Source of the DNA: a virus
DNA: 64,000 nt
IMG/VR virus record: IMGVR_UViG_3300046373_000069
Span: 1-64,000 of that record
Direction: 5' to 3' (one strand)
Part shown: positions 4,225-59,176 of the stretch, one piece after another
Layout of the letters: each line of letters begins with the position of its first letter
Position numbering within the stretch: position 1 is the stretch's first letter
Translations under genes and position numbers: made by a program
The notes under the pieces: generated by a model
Seen by the model: only the letters and a program-made list of their open reading frames with translations
The model's database searches: none
Told to the model about the DNA's origin: nothing

Positions 4225-4554
4225 ATGAACAAACCACTGACAGGCCCCTATTACGGATTGCACGAAGAAATGTCTCCAGACGACTCTCGACAAACTGAAT
4301 GGGCAGAACAACGAGCAACGCGCGGCTTTGACAACACTGAGTTGTGGAACCTCGACATCACTATTGCAAAGTTTATTCTTCCTCGCTTGATAGCTTACAA
4401 AGAAGTAAGCACTCATACGGACGATAAAGGTATTGATAAGATGATTGTTGCTTTCGAGGCAATTGTTAATGGGGACTGCTTCAACAGCATGCCAGAGGAA
4501 GTGGAAGAGGGCTTGAAAGTGTTTCATGAGAACTACTTTAGGTTGTGGCTATGA
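4225..4554 (+). CDS. hypothetical phage protein (RGFD..ELWNLD..IAKFILPRL motif)
   Basis: motif recurrent in lytic phage accessory genes; start moved to ATG 4225. Confidence 0.65.
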   Translation: MNKPLTGPYYGLHEEMSPDDSRQTEWAEQRATRGFDNTELWNLDITIAKFILPRLIAYKEVSTHTDDKGIDKMIVAFEAIVNGDCFNSMPEEVEEGLKVFHENYFRLWL

Positions 4555-8382: not shown

Positions 8383-8869
8383 GCGTTATTTAGCAAAATC
8401 CTTAAAAATCTTTTCCGGCCTAGCTGGCGTCGGCTACCTGTGTAGCTGCTAGGCTGGATCAACTTCTAAGGGCGGGCTTTTGAGCCTGTCTAGATCGCGT
8501 CTGGTATGAATCCCTATCCGCTGTCCTGTTCGGTCCTCTCCGGCCTTCCTGGCGCGTTTGCGGGGCACCCTGCGCTGTATTCTGTGCTGTCCTCCCTGTA
8601 GCTGGCTGTTTAGGAGTTCTTTCTATGCCTTGCTAGTTTTCTGTTGCTTGCTTCAGTAGGTACAGAGTAGGGCATATCTCCAGTGCTGGATATGGCGTGC
8701 GCGGCAAGATACATAGAGAGACGATAGGAAGGTTCCTATTCACTGTTACAACTTCGTGCAAAATAATTTGAGAAAGAGCTTGCATATCCATAGGAACCCT
8801 GTAGAATTCAATACATGGACGGAGCGCAAGCGAAGTCAAATCGAAACACAACACACAGAGGAAAACATT

Positions 8870-15796: not shown

Positions 15797-15991
15797 ATGC
15801 GATTAGACCTTAACTTAGACATCATCCGATGGATCGATGCGAACAAAGGCGACAAGTCAAGACCAGCTTTTATTATATCAAAGCTAAGAGAACTAATGCA
15901 AGACACGAAGCCTAACGGCACAATCCATACGAAGGGACTACATGAAGAAAATATCTCCTATGGAGCTAACCACGCTCCTGAACAGAACTAA
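15797..15991 (+). CDS. ribbon-helix-helix-like DNA-binding protein
   Basis: MRLDL..DIIRWID....SRPAFI...LRE pattern, AAGGA RBS. Confidence 0.55.
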   Translation: MRLDLNLDIIRWIDANKGDKSRPAFIISKLRELMQDTKPNGTIHTKGLHEENISYGANHAPEQN

Positions 15992-16526
15992 GGTTTCTGT
16001 TTCCAAATTGACAGTACACGAACACCGTCTATTGTCTTTCCTGCTGGCGAGAGTGAACAAAGACAGGTTAGCTACTCATGGCTACCTTGCTTGGCCCGGC
16101 ACTGATGAAATCATTGACTACACAGACATATCTAAATCCACTATCGAGCGACTGCGCAAAACGCTAGTTGCTGCTGGATGGGTGCAATACACGCCGGGCC
16201 ATGGTGCAGGTTCCAGCAATCATTACTACATCAACGGACAGCGTATCTATGATGCATATGTGGCATCTGGCAATAAACCACCAGAGGGGACCGTGTACGC
16301 CACAAATGTGCAGGAGAAGCCAAAGAAGCAACACGAGCGCAATAAGTCAGGACTTAAGCAGGGTAAGGTAACGCCCGTTGCGCAAGAAGTCCCCAAGGTG
16401 TCTGTCCAACCAGTGGATGGGGGCTACCCTCGCTGGCATAAGGGTGTATGGGTGACGAGCGCAGAACACGCCCGAAGGGTGGATATTGAAGCGCAACACA
16501 CTCAAGACGAGGATTGTCCCTTTTAG
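15942..16526 (+). CDS. winged-HTH protein, replication-initiator-like N-terminus
   Basis: AWPG.DEI.DYTDISKSTIER.RKTL..AGWV resembles the HTH of phage replisome organisers. Confidence 0.65.
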   Translation: MKKISPMELTTLLNRTKVSVSKLTVHEHRLLSFLLARVNKDRLATHGYLAWPGTDEIIDYTDISKSTIERLRKTLVAAGWVQYTPGHGAGSSNHYYINGQRIYDAYVASGNKPPEGTVYATNVQEKPKKQHERNKSGLKQGKVTPVAQEVPKVSVQPVDGGYPRWHKGVWVTSAEHARRVDIEAQHTQDEDCPF

Positions 16527-18808: not shown

Positions 18809-18995
18809 ACTACAACGAGCTAAAGAGTGCTGTAGAGCAAGCTAGGCAAGCGGCTGTTGAGGCTAGGGCAGCGTATCAGCTAGCACCAACTAGAGAAGGC
18901 CTTAATACAGCACATACTAAGTGGTTTACGTATGAGTCGCTGGATAGTGACCTGCTGAGGATGGATGTGGACATTTGGTTGGAGGGGGTGTTGTG

Positions 18996-19430
18996 ATGAG
19001 GGATACACGGATTCAAGATCAAGCCTATATGCTGGCTGCGAGGCATCACAAGGGCCAACTATACGGGACAGAGCCATACACTGAACATCTGGCGGATGTC
19101 GTTCAAAGCCTTTGGATGAAGCACGGGGACAGTATCAACCCTGTGCTAGTCGCTACGGCATGGCTGCATGATGTGCTGGAGGATACTGAGTGTACTTGGG
19201 AGGAAATTGTAGCTGCGTGTGGAGATGAAGTAGCACGGGCAGTTGTGTGTCTGACAAAGCACCCCCAGCAAGCTAAAGAATGGTATATCGCAAGGATTAA
19301 AGCCTGCCCAATTGCCCTAGAGGTGAAGATTCATGACAGTTTATGCAACCTCCGTGCTAGTGTCATGAGCGGGGAGAGGGGGAGGGTACGGAAGTATTCG
19401 CAGCAGTTGATGCTGTTGGTAGAGGGGTGA
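18996..19430 (+). CDS. HD-domain hydrolase, RelA/SpoT-Mesh1 (small alarmone hydrolase) type
   Basis: H.GQ..G.EPY..H, LHDVLEDT, VK..D...N motifs. Confidence 0.8.
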   Translation: MRDTRIQDQAYMLAARHHKGQLYGTEPYTEHLADVVQSLWMKHGDSINPVLVATAWLHDVLEDTECTWEEIVAACGDEVARAVVCLTKHPQQAKEWYIARIKACPIALEVKIHDSLCNLRASVMSGERGRVRKYSQQLMLLVEG

Positions 19431-19465
19431 GAGGGATGCCCGTAAGGGGTTAGATAGCAGCACAC

Positions 19466-19493
19466 AAAAGCCCGCTCTAGGCGGGCTTTTCTT
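19466..19493. terminator. Rho-independent terminator (bidirectional type)
   Basis: AAAAGCCCGC-TCTAG-GCGGGCTTTT. Confidence 0.85.
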
Positions 19494-19667
19494 CGTCACT
19501 ATGCGTACCCCTAGGCAGCAGCTACAAGGCCCGTAGAGAGCCTATACAGGGCTGCTAGAGGGCATGCTGTACATCGTGCTATGTGTGGCCCCCCCTTCGG
19601 GGTGAGGGTGGCTGTGCAGCTACATGTAGGCAATGTGTTCTACCATGTGCTATGGGGCAGCTACTAC

Positions 19668-19714
19668 CCACTATATGTAGTGTTACTATGTGGCACGCCT
19701 ACTAGATGTAGGGC
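19668..19714. promoter_or_regulatory. tandem NrdR-box-like sites
   Basis: CCACTATATGTAGTGT (19668) and CTACTAGATGTAGGGC (19699), 31-bp offset. Confidence 0.65.
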
Positions 19715-19716
19715 AA

Positions 19717-19750
19717 TGTTAGTGAGTACTAACGTTAGCGGTTACTAACA
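19717..19750. promoter_or_regulatory. two adjacent SlmA-binding-site (SBS)-like palindromes
   Basis: GTGAGTACTAAC (11/12 to GTGAGTACTCAC) with GTTA flank, then GTTAGCGGTTACTAAC. Confidence 0.55.
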
Positions 19751-19834
19751 TAGGGTTAAGCAAACAATCACGCCTTCTTCTTCGCATACGAAGTAGTTTC
19801 CTTTACAACAACACCCCTCCCAGACACCTCGAAA

Positions 19835-19891
19835 TGTTGCTAACAAGCATTGCGTTGCAGCAGGGCAACATCTAGTTGCTACGAAGCAACA
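19835..19891. repeat. three GTTGC-N6-GCA(AC) palindromic operators
   Basis: TGTTGC-TAACAA-GCATTG, GTTGC-AGCAGG-GCAACA, GTTGC-TACGAA-GCAACA. Confidence 0.65.
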
Positions 19892-20395
19892 TCAGAGGGC
19901 ACATTTTCGCCTTGACTTCCTAGTGCGTGCTGGGCGGTGGGTGATAGGGTGCCCGATGGGGCGTAGCTGGCATGGATGGACAGGGAGATGGAGACGCTTA
20001 ATCCTTTAGAATCAATGACATGCACCTACTCAGGCAGGCTCGACATTCACGCATCGCATACCTGAAAATGGACCCTTAGGGAACCAAAAGGGGATGGATT
20101 AGAGGCTCCAGAAGGCGTCGAAAGGGCGTGCTGGTAGGTGCACAAGGGACGCCCTCTGATCGTCGCTCCTACGTCATATTTGACCCGCTCTAGTGCTATG
20201 GGCGACCCCGTATGGGCCATGTTTAACCACGTTTGTAAGCCTGTAACATTCTCAAAAGTGCCTATTTGACCCATCTTTTCGTCCACTTTTAGCCTTGTTT
20301 GAGATACTTTTTCATATGATTTCGCACAGCAAAACTACGAAGTGGGCTATCCAAAAATAATTTTTAGAAAATTTCAAGTTTCCTGAAAAGGGCCA

Positions 20396-20424
20396 TTGAC
20401 AGATGCGTTTATAGCCGCTACAAT
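20396..20424 (+). promoter_or_regulatory. sigma70 promoter of recombinase gene
   Basis: TTGACA-17-TACAAT. Confidence 0.8.
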
Positions 20425-20469
20425 GACTGCATCAACTAGCAACTTTGCACACACAAACAGGAGCTTGAA

Positions 20470-21114
20470 ATGACTACTACATATTTTTATACGAGGGTGT
20501 CCCTTGAAGAGCAGACGACAGAGAACCAGAAGCTTGCTGCTAAGGCCGCTGGCCTGACGATTGACGAGTGCTTCACTGACCACGGTGTGTCAGGTGGAGT
20601 GAAGGCTATGGAGCGTCCTGAGTTCGCCCGCATGGCTGCTCTTGTGAAAGCCGGTGACATCCTCGCAGTGAATAGCGTTGATCGCATCGGACGAGACACT
20701 GTGGACGTTCTCTCTACTGTGGAAATGTTCCAAGCTAAGGGTGTCAAGGTGTGTGTTCTCGCCTATGGCAATCTTGATCTTACTAGCGATATGGGTAAGA
20801 TGATATTGACAATCGCAGCAGGCTTCGCAGCCCTAGAGAGGTCGAATCTCCGCACTCGCACAAAGCAAGGCATGGCGCGTACTAAAGCGCAAGGCACGAA
20901 GCTTGGCAGGCCACTCAAGATTACTCCAGACACGCTAGCAGATATTTTGAAGGACAGGGATGCAGGTGTACCGCTGGAAGGGTTGTCTCAAAAATATAAA
21001 ATCCCCCGCAATACCATCCACAAAAATGTTGCTAAGTGGGCTGGTAAAGTGGAGGACTATCGTGTAGAGTACAAAGCTCGTGAAGTGCAGTATGCAGCGT
21101 CTAAACTCAACTAA
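20470..21114 (+). CDS. small serine recombinase (resolvase/invertase family)
   Basis: YTRVS catalytic motif, D.G.SG, RP.F, GD.L.V..VDRIGR, ER...R.RT..G, GRP + C-terminal HTH. Confidence 0.95.
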   Translation: MTTTYFYTRVSLEEQTTENQKLAAKAAGLTIDECFTDHGVSGGVKAMERPEFARMAALVKAGDILAVNSVDRIGRDTVDVLSTVEMFQAKGVKVCVLAYGNLDLTSDMGKMILTIAAGFAALERSNLRTRTKQGMARTKAQGTKLGRPLKITPDTLADILKDRDAGVPLEGLSQKYKIPRNTIHKNVAKWAGKVEDYRVEYKAREVQYAASKLN

Positions 21115-46976: not shown

Positions 46977-47347
46977 TGGCTAAAGTACCTGTCTCATCTA
47001 AGAACGCCACTACGGCAGTTCTGCTCAATTCGATTTACCTATCAACTTCTGGTGACACCCTCACTTACCTACCCAACACCGGGCAAGAACTCTGGATGTT
47101 TAACACCAGCGGTAATGCTGTTACGGTGAACATTGATGGAGCAGCCGGGACGGTTGTAACCATTCCAGGCACAGCCGGGACTACTTTGAATGTTGCTCCC
47201 GGTCTCCCTATTAACATCCCTGCCTACTCTTTCGCTTATCTAAGTCTAGATAAGGCGGAGAGGTTCCTTCAGGGGGTTGTGGCAATCACAGCTTCCACAG
47301 GGGCAGTCATTCGAGCAGTAACCGTATCTCCACTCTCATTCTCTTAG
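46976..47347 (+). CDS. small structural protein, paralog of the C-terminal domain of 45036-46049
   Basis: GQEL..FN, GLPIN.PA..F..L.LD.A..L.G.V shared. Confidence 0.7.
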   Translation: MAKVPVSSKNATTAVLLNSIYLSTSGDTLTYLPNTGQELWMFNTSGNAVTVNIDGAAGTVVTIPGTAGTTLNVAPGLPINIPAYSFAYLSLDKAERFLQGVVAITASTGAVIRAVTVSPLSFS

Positions 47348-47360
47348 AAAGAAATATCAA

Positions 47361-47816
47361 ATGGCCGTTATCACATTTAGCTCCGCTGGCACCAAAGTTT
47401 CGCTTTCGTCCGGCAAACCGACTGGTGCTCCTTCCGCCACCACCCTTTCCGCCCTGACGTACACCGAAATCGGCGGTGTGTCCGAAGTCGGAATGCTGGG
47501 TCCAGAATCGTCGGTTATCGTATTCAACCCTTTGAGCGATAATATTAGCTATAAACAAAAGGGTCAAAAGAACGCTGGTGCACTGGATTGCAAGGGTGCC
47601 CTTAACAATGAAGACGCAGGCCAAATTCTGCTGCAAGCTGCTGAGGCTTCGCCTGAAGAGTACGCACTGAAGATTGAACTGACTAACGGTTCGACATTGT
47701 ACTGCATGATTTTGGTCACAAGTTTCAAGACGAATATCGGTAACTCGGGCCAGATTACGATGTTTGAATCGAAGCTCGAAATCAGCGGTAATGTCTTTAC
47801 TCAAGCTGCTGCTTAA
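47361..47816 (+). CDS. major tail tube protein
   Basis: SSAGT, YTEIG.V, K.KG..NAG, DAGQ..L..A motifs; siphovirus type. Confidence 0.85.
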   Translation: MAVITFSSAGTKVSLSSGKPTGAPSATTLSALTYTEIGGVSEVGMLGPESSVIVFNPLSDNISYKQKGQKNAGALDCKGALNNEDAGQILLQAAEASPEEYALKIELTNGSTLYCMILVTSFKTNIGNSGQITMFESKLEISGNVFTQAAA

Positions 47817-47892
47817 GAGTTAGCTAGTTTTGCACGCGGGCGTTGCTGGCATTTTCACCAGCCGCCCATCCGTGCCTTTAATAGGGTGCGAG

Positions 47893-48846
47893 ATGCCGAA
47901 GCAAAAAACTCAAGAAGAATGGTTAAATAGCATACCCAAAGAACACAAGGATAAGTTTGATTACAGCAAGGCTGTCTATACTAAGTCTCAAAACAAAGTT
48001 CTACTAACGTGTAAGAAATGCAGTACAGAATTTATGCAGCGGGCTGATATGAACACAAGAGGCGTTGGCTGTAAGGTCTGTCAACATAGGGCGCTACACG
48101 CCAGTCTTGTCCATACAAAGGAGATGTTCATTGAACGTAGCCAAGAAGAGTTTGGCGATAAGTACGGTTACGAGCTTGTTAAGTATGTGGATAAATACAC
48201 GAAAGTCGATATCATCTGTAGGAAGGAAGGGCACGGTATTTTCCAAGTCACGCCTGCCAATCTGAAGAAGGGACGACACTCGTGCCCCAAGTGTGCTGGG
48301 GAAGCAATTTCAAAAGCCCACCGTAAAACGCAAGAAGATTTCGTTGAAGAGTGTCGAGCACTGTGCGCAGAAGGCATCACGTTTGAGCACGTAAAGTACT
48401 CAGGAGATAAAACTAATGTGATGTTCAACTGCGCCACACACGGCATTTTTGATATGCTACCCGGTAACTTCCTTAAGGGGTGCCGCTGCCCATCATGTGC
48501 AAGCTACGGGTACAGAAAGGCGCTCCCCGGTAGATTCTACATTTTATCGGATGGCTACACCACAAAGGTCGGTGTCACCAATAAGGAACCTGAATATAGG
48601 GCTAAATCGGTGGCTAAGACGGGTGGTCCAATTATGGACATCATGGTGAACATGTTCTTTGCAGATGGCGCAATGCCCTTGAAGATTGAAACTGCTTGCC
48701 TTCGCTACTTAAAGACAAAATACAAATCCCCAAGTAGCACATTCGACGGTGCTACTGAGTGCTTCCTAGGTGTGGATATCCCAGACCTTCTAAATTTTAT
48801 CTCACCAATCGCATCAACCGCAGAGCTGGAACAATCCGGCCTTTAA
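47893..48846 (+). CDS. homing endonuclease-like (DUF723-type Zn repeats + T5orf172-like domain)
   Basis: three Y..V.Y..V.I.C..HG.F..P..CP.C units; FYIL..KVG.TN, FDG.TECF. Confidence 0.8.
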   Translation: MPKQKTQEEWLNSIPKEHKDKFDYSKAVYTKSQNKVLLTCKKCSTEFMQRADMNTRGVGCKVCQHRALHASLVHTKEMFIERSQEEFGDKYGYELVKYVDKYTKVDIICRKEGHGIFQVTPANLKKGRHSCPKCAGEAISKAHRKTQEDFVEECRALCAEGITFEHVKYSGDKTNVMFNCATHGIFDMLPGNFLKGCRCPSCASYGYRKALPGRFYILSDGYTTKVGVTNKEPEYRAKSVAKTGGPIMDIMVNMFFADGAMPLKIETACLRYLKTKYKSPSSTFDGATECFLGVDIPDLLNFISPIASTAELEQSGL

Positions 48847-55778: not shown

Positions 55779-57269
55779 ATGGCAGTGACAAGCACGCAGT
55801 TGAAGGATTGGCTTAGGAAGACTAGCAGCGCACGCCGCTGCGTGCTTGTTGAGGTTGGTGTGTTGACAGGTGGCTCGGAAATCACGCGCTATCTGTCCAA
55901 TAAGGGCTACACCACCAAAAGTGGTGAGGCTCCTGCTAACACGCAGTACAAGCCATGTGTTTCTGGTGGTGTGACATTCACAGAGTCGTTGTCGCTAGAC
56001 GGCTCTGTGACTATCTCCACAGGCGCTATTGAGTTTGATAACACAGATGGTAAGCTGGACAGCTGGCTTATCGATGTGTGGAAGAATCGCAGTGTGAAAG
56101 TTTTTATCGGGGATGAGTTGTGGCCCCGTAGCGATTTCTATCAGATTTTCGATGGGGTTACGGACAAGCTTGATTGTACTTCCAGAGACATTGTTAGTCT
56201 TGTCGTCAGCGACAAACTCCAGCGTCTGAACACCACAGTGAGTGATGTGAAGCTGGGTGGCAGCAGTGCTAATGCAGACAAGCTAATTCCTTGGTTGTAT
56301 GGTGAGCAGTTCAACGTCACACCATTACTGGTTGATCTTGCTTACAACGAGTATCAAGTTAGCGGTGGGCCAATCAGTGAGATTGAAGAGGTGAGGGACA
56401 ATGGCGTTCCAGTGGGATTTGTTCCACTTCTCTCACAAGGGAGGTTCAGGATCACTCAAGCCCCACAAGGCACAATCACTTGTGATGTTATGGGGGATGC
56501 GCCAAACGGAGTTTACGTTGACGATGTTGTTAATATCATCAAGCGCCTTGTTAAAAGCTTCGGCAATGCTCAGCAGCGTTTCACAGACAGCGATCTGGAC
56601 TTGGTATCTTTGAACGCTTTCGCTGCTGCGAACACACAACCTGTGGGCTTGTACTTGACAGACAAAGCTAACGTGCTGGAGTGCTGCAATAAGCTCGCTG
56701 CCAGTATTGGCGCAAGGTGCGTAATGTCTCGTACCGGGTTGCTCTCGTTAATCAAGCTAGACCTGCCGCAAACCACCTCCGGTACGCTCGTCACGGCGGA
56801 CGATATTTATGAGCGCAGCCTTTATGTTAGTCAAATGCCTGACGTTATGGCTGCTGCTCAGGTTGGCTACTGTAGGAACAACACAATTCAGAATGCCCTA
56901 CAGACTGGCCTCCCACAAGACCAAATTGCTATGTATGCCCAAGAGCAGGAGTGGCTTACATCTACAAAGAAATCGGATGCTGTGGCTACCGATTATAAGT
57001 TGTTCACCAATCCTGACATGATTGAAACCCAGCTTATGACCCCCGAGGGTGCTGACAGTGAGGCAACGAGGCTCAAAACTTTGTGGGGTGTGCAGCGCAG
57101 GGTGGTGGTATATGACGGCATGCCTTGGCTCATGTTGGAGAGTTTAGGCAACCCCCAAACAGTGAAGCATCCCACACGCTTTCAACTCGCAGCGGGTGTC
57201 CGAGGCCAGATTGTCCGCATCACATCAGATTGGCTTAAAGCCAAAATTCAAATAGGAGTGCTCCTTTAA
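55779..57269 (+). CDS. tail tip/baseplate hub-type protein
   Basis: follows TMP; N.DG.LD, P.LYG..NVTP.LVD, VRDNG motifs. Confidence 0.65.
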   Translation: MAVTSTQLKDWLRKTSSARRCVLVEVGVLTGGSEITRYLSNKGYTTKSGEAPANTQYKPCVSGGVTFTESLSLDGSVTISTGAIEFDNTDGKLDSWLIDVWKNRSVKVFIGDELWPRSDFYQIFDGVTDKLDCTSRDIVSLVVSDKLQRLNTTVSDVKLGGSSANADKLIPWLYGEQFNVTPLLVDLAYNEYQVSGGPISEIEEVRDNGVPVGFVPLLSQGRFRITQAPQGTITCDVMGDAPNGVYVDDVVNIIKRLVKSFGNAQQRFTDSDLDLVSLNAFAAANTQPVGLYLTDKANVLECCNKLAASIGARCVMSRTGLLSLIKLDLPQTTSGTLVTADDIYERSLYVSQMPDVMAAAQVGYCRNNTIQNALQTGLPQDQIAMYAQEQEWLTSTKKSDAVATDYKLFTNPDMIETQLMTPEGADSEATRLKTLWGVQRRVVVYDGMPWLMLESLGNPQTVKHPTRFQLAAGVRGQIVRITSDWLKAKIQIGVLL

Positions 57270-59176
57270 TGCCGATGAAGAACCCGCGCAGTGTGGCTTT
57301 AAGAAATGCTAATCCGCGCCTACTGACTTCTCCTAACGCAGATGTGCTGCTGAGCGCAAGCACTCCAATCTTTCACGTTAATAACTCCGGCATTCCCTCG
57401 ACAAATACCATCACACTCAACGCTAGTTTGATTGCGATGGAAGGCACTGTGACGTTCACTTGTGAAGGTGGTACGCTCAGCAACATCGTGGGTAACACTT
57501 GCGCGCTGAATTATGAAACGCTCACTGGTGACAATGCCAAGGTTATTGCAACGATTACATATCGGAACAAGACGTACACTGATACAGTAGAAATCTCTAA
57601 AGTGTATGACGGGCAGAATGGCGTTGTTGGCATGAACAACGCTGTGGTGTATGCCTACCAACGCTCTGCCACGCAGCCAACAGGCACCCCGGGGGCTGTT
57701 ACGTACAGCTTCACTGCTAGGGCTATTACGAATGCCTCGCTATCTAGTGGGTGGCAGAAAATACTCCCAAGTGGTACAGGTACGTTGTGGATTACTGCAG
57801 CTACAGCTGCCTCGTCTGGCAGCAGCGATGATATCGCAGCAAATGAGTGGAGTGGTTCAGTTATACTGGCACAGGACGGTACACAGGGGACGAATGGTAT
57901 TAACAGTGCGGCAGTGACTATTTACCAGCGCACAGCCACCACAACGGCCCCTGCCCTCCCAAGTGCAGCTACTACATACACGTTTAATCCTCCGGGCCTT
58001 ACAGGGCTTACTAACGGCTGGACGACAACACTACCGAATGCCTCTGCTGGTAAATACTTGTGGGCGTCCACAGCCACTGCTGCAAACACTGCTGCTACGG
58101 ATAGTATTCCCGCTAGTGAATGGGCAGCGGCCCAGATGCTTGTGCAAGATGGCGCAGCAGGCACTCGGGGTAATGTCCAAGTAGCTCGGGCTATTCCGGG
58201 CAGCGTGTGGAGTGACTCTGAAGCTGCTCTAGCTATCTCTGGCGCGGGTTATGGCACTCCGCAGAACCGGGATATTGTAACTCTGTACAACAACTCTGCA
58301 AACTACTCTCAACAGAAATATTATGACGGCGCAGCTTGGCAAGCGTTGGCAGCATATTTTCCGGGTGGTGTGATTGTAGATGGTACAATGGATGCTACCG
58401 CGCTGAAGGCTAAAACTATCACAGGCGATAAGATTGCAGCTAGGGCGATTACGGCTACAAGTATCAATGTCTCAGGGAATAGCGACAACATTATTCCTGA
58501 CCCCCGATTTAAAGACTTAGTTTGGTGGGGGCGTGTAGGCAGCGCAGTCGGGCAATTCGCTGAAAATGGTCAAGTGACAGGGTGGAAAGGTGGTGCCTCA
58601 CTCTACTTGAGCCAAAACTCGGGCGAACTTATTAGTTATAGCCAGTATTTCGACTTGATTCCCGGCGCCACATACTTGATCGAAGTACAAGTCGGCCTGA
58701 GTAGTGATTTCAACGGGCGGGCGTCTGTGTACCTAACTATCCCCGGCGACCGGGACTACGCGATGGTTGACCGCAGTGCAGGGCAGGTGTGGTCAGATAA
58801 CTTGCCAGTACAACTCAATGCATCCTCTCCAAAAGGGATTATCACCTACTCGACCACGTACACCATCCCTACCAGTGGTACGCTATCGAAGGCGCGCATT
58901 CAAATTAGGAACAGTCACACTGTCGGGATTATTGAAGTCGGTAGCGCTAGCATCACGCGAGTTTCCGATAGTGTTTTGATTAAAGATGGCGCAGTTACAG
59001 CAAATAAAATTAGTGTAGTTTCTCTGTCTGCTATTAATGTAGATGTGGGATTTCTTACTAGCAGAGCCGGAGGCCCCGGTGCTGGATACGGAGCAGGTAC
59101 GGAAATTCAGAAGGATCAGATTCGCATCTACGACGAAGCTGGGAACTTGAGACTACTCGACGGGAGGTTAAACTAA
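57269..59176 (+). CDS. tail fibre/tip protein with carbohydrate-binding-like domain
   Basis: repeated YQR.AT.P units, IT.DKIAA.AITA, NII.DP.F domain, IRIYD..GNLR end. Confidence 0.7.
   Translation: MPMKNPRSVALRNANPRLLTSPNADVLLSASTPIFHVNNSGIPSTNTITLNASLIAMEGTVTFTCEGGTLSNIVGNTCALNYETLTGDNAKVIATITYRNKTYTDTVEISKVYDGQNGVVGMNNAVVYAYQRSATQPTGTPGAVTYSFTARAITNASLSSGWQKILPSGTGTLWITAATAASSGSSDDIAANEWSGSVILAQDGTQGTNGINSAAVTIYQRTATTTAPALPSAATTYTFNPPGLTGLTNGWTTTLPNASAGKYLWASTATAANTAATDSIPASEWAAAQMLVQDGAAGTRGNVQVARAIPGSVWSDSEAALAISGAGYGTPQNRDIVTLYNNSANYSQQKYYDGAAWQALAAYFPGGVIVDGTMDATALKAKTITGDKIAARAITATSINVSGNSDNIIPDPRFKDLVWWGRVGSAVGQFAENGQVTGWKGGASLYLSQNSGELISYSQYFDLIPGATYLIEVQVGLSSDFNGRASVYLTIPGDRDYAMVDRSAGQVWSDNLPVQLNASSPKGIITYSTTYTIPTSGTLSKARIQIRNSHTVGIIEVGSASITRVSDSVLIKDGAVTANKISVVSLSAINVDVGFLTSRAGGPGAGYGAGTEIQKDQIRIYDEAGNLRLLDGRLN

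Follow-up and report, generated by a model that had tools for sequence, protein, structure and literature searches.

A conserved tandem palindrome in an uncultured phage genome resembles the operators of SlmA-like TetR regulators

What binds a pair of abutting palindromes in a gene-free spacer of an uncultured phage, and could the binder be SlmA of the host? The element lies in an IMG/VR virus record that is complete (93,609 bp, direct terminal repeats), and the window analysed here is the first 64 kb of that record (64,000 nucleotides). The phage, referred to as G000, has a GC content of 49% and is myovirus-like. The initial annotation described the element as back-to-back SlmA-binding sites (SBS), by which replicating phage genomes would spread activated SlmA through the cell and inhibit septation, with another TetR-family binder as the fallback. 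The large terminase (TerL) of G000 is only ~40% identical to those of isolates, namely Pakpunavirus and Felix-O1-like phages, and the isolate hosts of these TerL relatives are all proteobacterial, mostly gamma. A tail protein of 635 aa (window 57269-59176) contains about 100 residues that are ~40% identical to tail-fibre/tail-tip proteins of Vibrio phages (14 of 15 matches). This Vibrio-phage-like segment and the proteobacterial TerL relatives are the only host hints found, and such sequence resemblances point only weakly to a host. Megablast and blastn against isolate phages gave no match for the site region, nor for the site-bearing contigs L003 and L005.

The spacer and its surroundings contain the following features (window coordinates):

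18975-19430, rightward, HD phosphohydrolase gene, the last gene of the rightward early block
19431-20469, no strand, gene-free spacer of about 1 kb that holds the tandem site; none of its small ORFs has a family match
19466-19490, + strand, intrinsic-terminator hairpin with T run, which closes the rightward early gene block
19716-19751, no strand, extended imperfect inverted repeat ATGTTAG...CTAACAT around both units (18-nt arms, 78% complementary, no gap)
19718-19733, no strand, unit 1, 16-bp palindrome GTTAGT-GAGT-ACTAAC (GTTAGTGAGTACTAAC), which contains the 11/12 match to the SBS core
19734-19749, no strand, unit 2, 16-bp palindrome GTTAGC-GGTT-ACTAAC (GTTAGCGGTTACTAAC), which abuts unit 1
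20396-20424, + strand, near-consensus sigma-70 promoter TTGACA-17-TACAAT of the recombinase gene, not adjoining the tandem site
20470-21114, + strand, small serine recombinase gene of resolvase/invertase type, 720-750 bp downstream of the tandem site

The rightward early block upstream of the terminator consists of small genes. No sigma-70 promoter adjoins the tandem site in the window, so a classic operator role is not evident. Rfam searches of 19000-21000 returned only sub-threshold chance matches, and repeats of the spacer recur elsewhere in the window only as chance-level 12-13-mers. The spacer 19431-20469 is homologous to spacers of the related contig G004 and of contigs L056/L070, L065 and L066. 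Palindromes of the form GTTGC-N6-GCAAC, often extended to ATGTTGC...GCAACAT, were also observed at 19854-19869 and 19875-19890; they recur in the homologous spacers of G004 (L119 14825) and L066 (2172), and may be either a second protein site or RNA hairpins.

The span first assigned to the element, 19717-19750, was correct to within one base, and the imperfect inverted repeat described there is present, covering 36 bases (19716-19751). The element is better described, however, as two abutting 16-bp palindromes with arms of 5-6 bp and a centre of 4-6 bp. The pattern GTTAG-N6-CTAAC was observed twice in the window against 0.04 expected, a number that none of 100 shuffled sequences reached, and the whole 93,609-bp genome contains no copies beyond these two. 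The 12-mer at 19722-19733 (GTGAGTACTAAC) agrees with the SBS core (GTGAGTACTCAC) at 11 of 12 positions, as had been reported, and unit 2 agrees with the same core at 8 of 12 (hand count). With one mismatch allowed, the 12-mer core had one match in the window versus 0.15 expected, and 13 of 100 shuffles had at least one; with two mismatches allowed, 2 matches were observed versus 2.57 expected. The 11/12 resemblance to the SBS core, taken alone, is not significant.

Conservation of the element was evaluated in G004, an IMG/VR contig (L077) of 90.7 kb with 40% GC and 100% completeness. Its TerL is 70% and its PhoH 48% identical to those of G000, and many structural and replication genes are common to both; by these sequence measures G004 is a true relative of the phage. 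The syntenic spot in G004 has GTTAGTGTTCACTAAC then GTTAGTAGGTACTAAC, and the elements there follow the order terminator, tandem site, CGC..TTCTT box, GTTGC-N6-GCAAC palindrome and serine recombinase. The G004 terminator, the counterpart of the window terminator at 19466-19490, lies 60 bp before the tandem site. The two spacers otherwise align poorly, and no other stretch of identical columns is as long as those at the terminator and the tandem site. The arms of the tandem site are 100% identical between G000 and G004, and the central four bases differ, which is the pattern expected of a protein-binding site; an RNA structure, or a palindrome arisen by chance, would not be expected to show it. 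The two phages have almost no early proteins in common, yet the arms of the site are identical. The site is patchy in the family, being present in 2 of about 36 related, PhoH-anchored contigs (besides this phage, G004 only). Judged by sequence comparison, the tandem element is a real, conserved, operator-type site. The serine recombinase was seen in opposite orientations relative to the conserved spacer elements in the window (20470-21114) and in G004 (47286-47948), which hints at an inversion or an independent insertion.

The fit of the element to SBS was analysed in detail, and the likeness extends further than the 11/12 core match. In SBS half-sites the bases critical for SlmA are G1, T2, A4 and G5, position 6 is a pyrimidine, and changes are tolerated at positions 3 (purines) and 6 (Tonthat 2011, PMC3020112). 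All four half-sites of the window carry G1, T2, A4, G5 and Y6. Position 3 is T in the window half-sites, outside the tested purines; the natural SBS17 has GTTAGT. The half-site centres are 10 bp apart, matching the DNA-competent TetR-type dimer, in which the recognition helices are 34 Å (~10 bp) apart, so one dimer fits per 16-bp unit. The 20-bp SBS layout with four overlapping half-sites was not found at the site, where the units abut. The best 20-mer of the window agrees with that layout at 13 of 20 positions, its fourth half-site reading ACGTTA, and by a binomial estimate chance alone would yield 13/20 matches many times in each genome. Two bona fide sites, SBS17 and SBS12, score 8/12 to the 12-bp core and 15/20 to the 20-bp layout. 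The sequences of the published SBS consensus, SBS17 and SBS12 were taken from PMC4423959, and geometrically all three may be read as two 16-bp GT-n-AG-Y-R-NN-Y-R-CT-n-AC units offset by 4 bp, a reading consistent with dimer-of-dimers binding by SlmA. The pattern GTNAG-N6-CTNAC was also tried as a genome-wide SBS descriptor and was rejected, with 57 copies in E. coli K-12 versus 63 in the control, and 2 versus 0 in SSU5. The pattern is enriched neither in E. coli K-12 nor in SSU5, and chromosomal SBS therefore do not look like perfect units.

For the background on SlmA, Cho 2011 and Tonthat 2013 included, the sources used were PMC4423959, PMC4726725, PMC4117426 and PMC3573117. SlmA keeps its DNA specificity across E. 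coli, Klebsiella and V. cholerae, and a cell contains ~300-400 SlmA molecules. The background cited in the initial annotation is correct: when a multicopy plasmid carries SBS, SlmA is delocalised and Z rings are blocked, although in E. coli this took ~4-fold extra SlmA. Among the papers searched, none links SlmA with phage genomes.

The exact tandem pattern, with 20 specified bases, was found in 8 other IMG/VR contigs from about 6 lineages. The phage occurrences are intergenic clusters of 2-6 units each. The ATGTTAG/CTAACAT flanks seen in the window are also present in the unrelated phage contigs L009 and L010, and in L003/L008 a terminator lies 6 bp ahead of the site. The site-bearing contig G001 is 98% complete and has 3 sites. 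The TerL of L010, whose flanks are most like those of the window, is nearest to Roseobacter and Paracoccus phages, so L010 looks alphaproteobacterial by its sequence. In L005, an unrelated phage contig of 59% GC, six units are packed into 240 bp (2727-2962) between divergent genes; besides four units that stand singly or abut, the cluster has an overlapping 20-mer, GTTAGTGAGTGCTCACTTAC, which agrees with the Cho consensus SBS at 18 of 20 positions (hand count). The ORFs flanking the six-site cluster of L005 include no HTH gene, and no neighbouring gene is common to the site-bearing phage contigs. As a separate observation, the cluster lies 1.2-1.5 kb upstream of the large-terminase start in four small-genome lineages, often directly after a terminator (L003 4377, L004 8075, L005 2727-2962 and L010 1227). 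G000 and G004 are unlike these small-genome lineages, with the site 8.6-11.6 kb from the large-terminase gene.

The same layout was then searched for in bacteria, using 185,579 species representatives. The tandem pattern was present at 45 genome loci, compared with about 0.5 expected (our own estimate from 596 Gb), and it is always placed behind the -10 of a promoter and ahead of the start codon of the gene that follows. No gammaproteobacterial genome among these species representatives has the tandem layout, and the motif was also found in phyla without SlmA. Three gene contexts cover 40 of the 45 bacterial loci (L011-L055):

10 loci, a TetR gene followed by a FAD oxidoreductase gene
14 loci, ArsR-SRPBCC operons of Actinomycetota and other phyla, where the pattern overlaps a leaderless start (MAN...)
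16 loci, Lachnospiraceae, with DUF3793-flavodoxin operons at some and a gene whose start resembles Mfd at the others

No TetR gene was found near the ArsR-family or Lachnospiraceae DUF3793-flavodoxin operons fronted by the identical tandem pattern, so that the family of the binding protein cannot be told from the arms by themselves.

The TetR group gives more specific information. Its loci belong to Actinomycetota and Geothermincolia MAGs (L014, L018, L020, L032, L035, L038/39, L045, L046 and L053). Compared with E. coli SlmA, the ten TetR proteins show 29-46% identity, and in the HTH 16 of 21 residues agree. When they were searched against curated families, SlmA (NF007015) was the best or a top-four match, with scores below the cut-off, indicating that these proteins are SlmA-like regulators and not SlmA orthologues. 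Judged by their position, the tandem operators of these genes are probably autoregulatory; we know of no paper describing them. Sites of the TetR group obey the rule GTTAGYR-NN-YRCTAAC (Y in position 6, R in position 7), which includes all the SlmA-critical bases at the spacing of a dimer; the ArsR and Lachnospiraceae groups deviate from it at positions 6 and 7. In the phage units position 6 is T (0.79) or C (0.21) and position 7 is G (0.61) or A (0.39), never C or T. Under group-specific matrices 13 of 14 phage units, including both window units, scored best as TetR-group sites, an assignment that rests on positions 6 and 7 and on modest samples of 14-36 units per group. The window units fit two abutting 16-bp palindromes of the form GTTAGYR-NN-YRCTAAC. 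These results give good support to the fallback binder of the initial annotation, another TetR-family protein, in that the tandem site is the cis operator of SlmA-like TetR genes.

A cognate gene was looked for on the phage side. No TetR gene in cis with the operator over its promoter was found in the 93.6-kb genome, and searches with TetR_N, HTH_20 and SlmA models returned nothing in G000, G001 and G004. None of the site-bearing phages examined encodes a TetR, ArsR-type or SlmA protein, which makes a host protein the likeliest binder. No protein family common to all site-bearing phages was detectable by BLAST. The identical arms of G000 and G004, despite their difference in GC and perhaps different hosts, favour a well-conserved host protein, as SlmA is. 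On balance, we lean towards reading the phage element as an operator pair of the TetR/SlmA class without a cognate phage gene. The 32-bp element would be a docking pair for two dimers of a TetR-family HTH protein with an SlmA-like DNA-reading head. Each unit would offer the half-sites GTTAGY and RCTAAC to one dimer, and, with the units abutting, the pair of dimers would sit on approximately opposite sides of the helix. Most likely the binder would come from the host: SlmA itself in an SlmA-bearing gammaproteobacterium, an SlmA-like regulator of the TetR family in any other host. The site follows directly on the early-block terminator, in gene-free control DNA, and the simplest role of a protein bound there would be that of an operator or roadblock coupling this region to a host factor. 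Both the identity of the binder and the effect of binding at the phage site are what we infer from sequence.

The homologous spacers of other phages carry sites of a different kind. In the sister group L056/L070 (one record), L065 and L066, the recombinase is 38-47% identical to that of the window, and the spacer elements that flank this position are conserved on both sides. The window has its tandem site 720-750 bp upstream of the recombinase; at the matching position, 750-1000 bp upstream of theirs, these sister phages have 4-10 exact DnaA boxes (TGTGGATAA), arranged in arrays at L070 9521-9699 (seven 12-bp tandem repeats), L065 4218-4354 and L066 2332-2407. Such arrays might serve as an origin that depends on DnaA, or as a sink for the protein. 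G004 has the tandem site together with two exact DnaA boxes (~6833 and 6887), 140-190 bp from the site, with an AT-rich tract beyond. No DnaA box (TTATCCACA) was found in window 19300-20600, even at one mismatch, and no IHF consensus was found in the window spacer. The arrangement suggests that this spacer position is used for host DNA-binding proteins. Palindromes resembling NrdR boxes were also observed, at window 19668-19683 (CCACTATATGTAGTGT, 14/16 to the consensus) and, weaker, 31 bp on at 19699-19714. The pair is kept in sequence and spacing in the sister phages (L065 ~4380-4430 and L056 ~8715-8770); it lies directly upstream of the variable module, and no nrd gene is nearby.

Several other explanations of the tandem site were weighed. 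In the main rival, which we regard as possible, though unlikely, the site serves as operator for a DNA-binding protein of the phage itself that has gone unrecognised, for instance an early repressor or a wHTH protein resembling an initiator. Operators in phages typically consist of two palindromes within an intergenic control region, the site is lineage-restricted as an accessory regulator with its operator would be, and the genome has many small early ORFs without annotation as well as a weak wHTH protein encoded at 15942-16526. Small, fast-evolving phage DNA-binding proteins could escape Pfam and BLAST screens. However, these arms were seen in 7 or more phage lineages that are otherwise unrelated and have no BLAST-detectable protein in common, the arms of G000 and G004 are identical although their early proteins are almost wholly different, and the small proteins common to these two phages show no DNA-binding domain. 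The wHTH protein of 15942-16526 was rejected as the common binder: five other contigs were examined, four with the site (G001, G004, G005 and G007) and one, G009, a relative, and none encodes a homologue. A less probable reading, which we consider doubtful, is the one first proposed, that host SlmA binds the sites and that replicating genomes spread SBS-activated SlmA, blocking FtsZ-ring assembly as a protein-free division inhibitor. The bases and spacing of the half-sites fit SlmA, unit 1 matches the core at 11/12, and the L005 cluster includes an overlapping consensus SBS at 18/20. SlmA specificity is conserved across species, so G000 and G004, whose hosts may differ, could keep identical arms, and both the Vibrio-phage-like tail segment and TerL relatives that infect Proteobacteria, mostly gamma, are compatible with such a host. 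SlmA moved to plasmid-borne SBS inhibits Z rings, and ~300-400 SlmA molecules per cell could be captured by a few hundred phage genome copies. On the other side, the 12-mer match alone has p ~0.13, the fourth half-site of the 20-bp layout is missing (13/20), position 3 is T, and the plasmid effect needed ~4-fold over-expression of SlmA. Each genome offers two sites and no array, with units that abut instead of overlapping, and most family members are without the site. The TerL affinity of L010 to Roseobacter and Paracoccus phages and the lack of the tandem layout in gammaproteobacterial genomes also indicate that the motif class is not tied to SlmA-bearing hosts.

The DnaA boxes of the sister phages, 4-10 of which match the consensus at this very position, bear on a third reading, in which the tandem site is part of a phage replication origin or initiator-loading region. 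The proximity of the G004 site to two exact DnaA boxes and an AT-rich tract, and the GC-rich box followed by a CTTCTTCTT run that is conserved beside the site, agree with this; but the window spacer has no DnaA box at up to one mismatch, TetR-type proteins are not known initiators, and most family members lack the site and yet must replicate, making an origin quite improbable. Still less probable is that the adjacent small serine recombinase uses the element as a res- or hix-like site, for crossover or in an accessory role. The recombinase flanks the same spacer in G000, G004, L056, L065 and L066, and is flipped in G004. Nevertheless, L056, L065 and L066 have the recombinase and no tandem site, whereas no serine recombinase was found in G001 or in four further site-bearing contigs, indicating that the recombinase is probably not the binder. 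All 45 bacterial loci are promoter-proximal and intergenic, and the operons beside 40 of them encode no recombinase. A res/hix/gix-type site was rejected on the lack of co-occurrence with the recombinase and on the single locus in the genome, which offers no second inverted or direct copy as recombination partner. Finally, a chance palindrome without function has a negligible probability. The match to the SBS core alone is within chance, but the tandem palindromes, expected 0.04 times, are syntenic in G004 and recur at 8 viral and 45 bacterial loci against fewer than one expected; this conservation effectively refutes chance.

With an operator pair of the TetR/SlmA class as the preferred reading, the spacer has further potential meaning. 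If a host TetR-type protein, SlmA especially, loads here, the takeover by a lytic phage could be encoded partly by DNA sites instead of proteins. Such a takeover would become directly testable through the module swap, in which two phages carry SlmA-type sites and their sisters DnaA arrays. A broader and rather speculative view, to which we give a low probability, treats the spacer as an exchangeable platform that presents protein-free decoys to regulators of the host cell cycle. The platform would comprise the SlmA-type sites of G000 and G004, the DnaA-box arrays of the sister phages and the NrdR-like boxes beside both, and replication would redistribute or soak up a division inhibitor, a replication initiator and an RNR repressor without any phage protein. 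If the site is an ordinary operator of an unrecognised phage protein, it would be of local interest only. The analysis also connects the operator GTTAGYR-NN-YRCTAAC, present twice, with the SlmA-like TetR regulators of Actinomycetota, a link that bears on the DNA specificity of SlmA versus ordinary TetR repressors.

The phage element was compared with known systems. With the operators of the SlmA-like TetR genes it shares the abutting GTTAGYR-NN-YRCTAAC, present twice, and identical preferences at positions 6 and 7; those operators overlap the promoter of the cognate TetR gene, whereas the phage lacks a TetR gene, and no promoter could be recognised at its site. With the DnaA-box arrays, as phage and plasmid sites for host factors, it shares a homologous position, but the window has no DnaA box and a different protein would read it. 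With the chromosomal SBS of E. coli, Klebsiella and V. cholerae it shares the half-site GT-n-AG-Y with the four critical bases, the 10-bp spacing, a purine at position 7, room for two dimers per element and, in unit 1, the 11/12 match to the core. The dimer sites abut in the phage at an offset of 16 bp, in contrast to the overlapping sites of chromosomal SBS with an offset of 4 bp, and the phage differs further in having T at position 3 and only two sites per genome, on phage DNA. QacR dimers overlap on a 28-bp repeat, the sequence of which is unrelated to the phage site. Binding of the QacR-IR1 type, with two TetR-family dimers on one extended operator, is named as a comparison in PMC3573117, and in the phage, too, two dimers would occupy one compound palindromic element.
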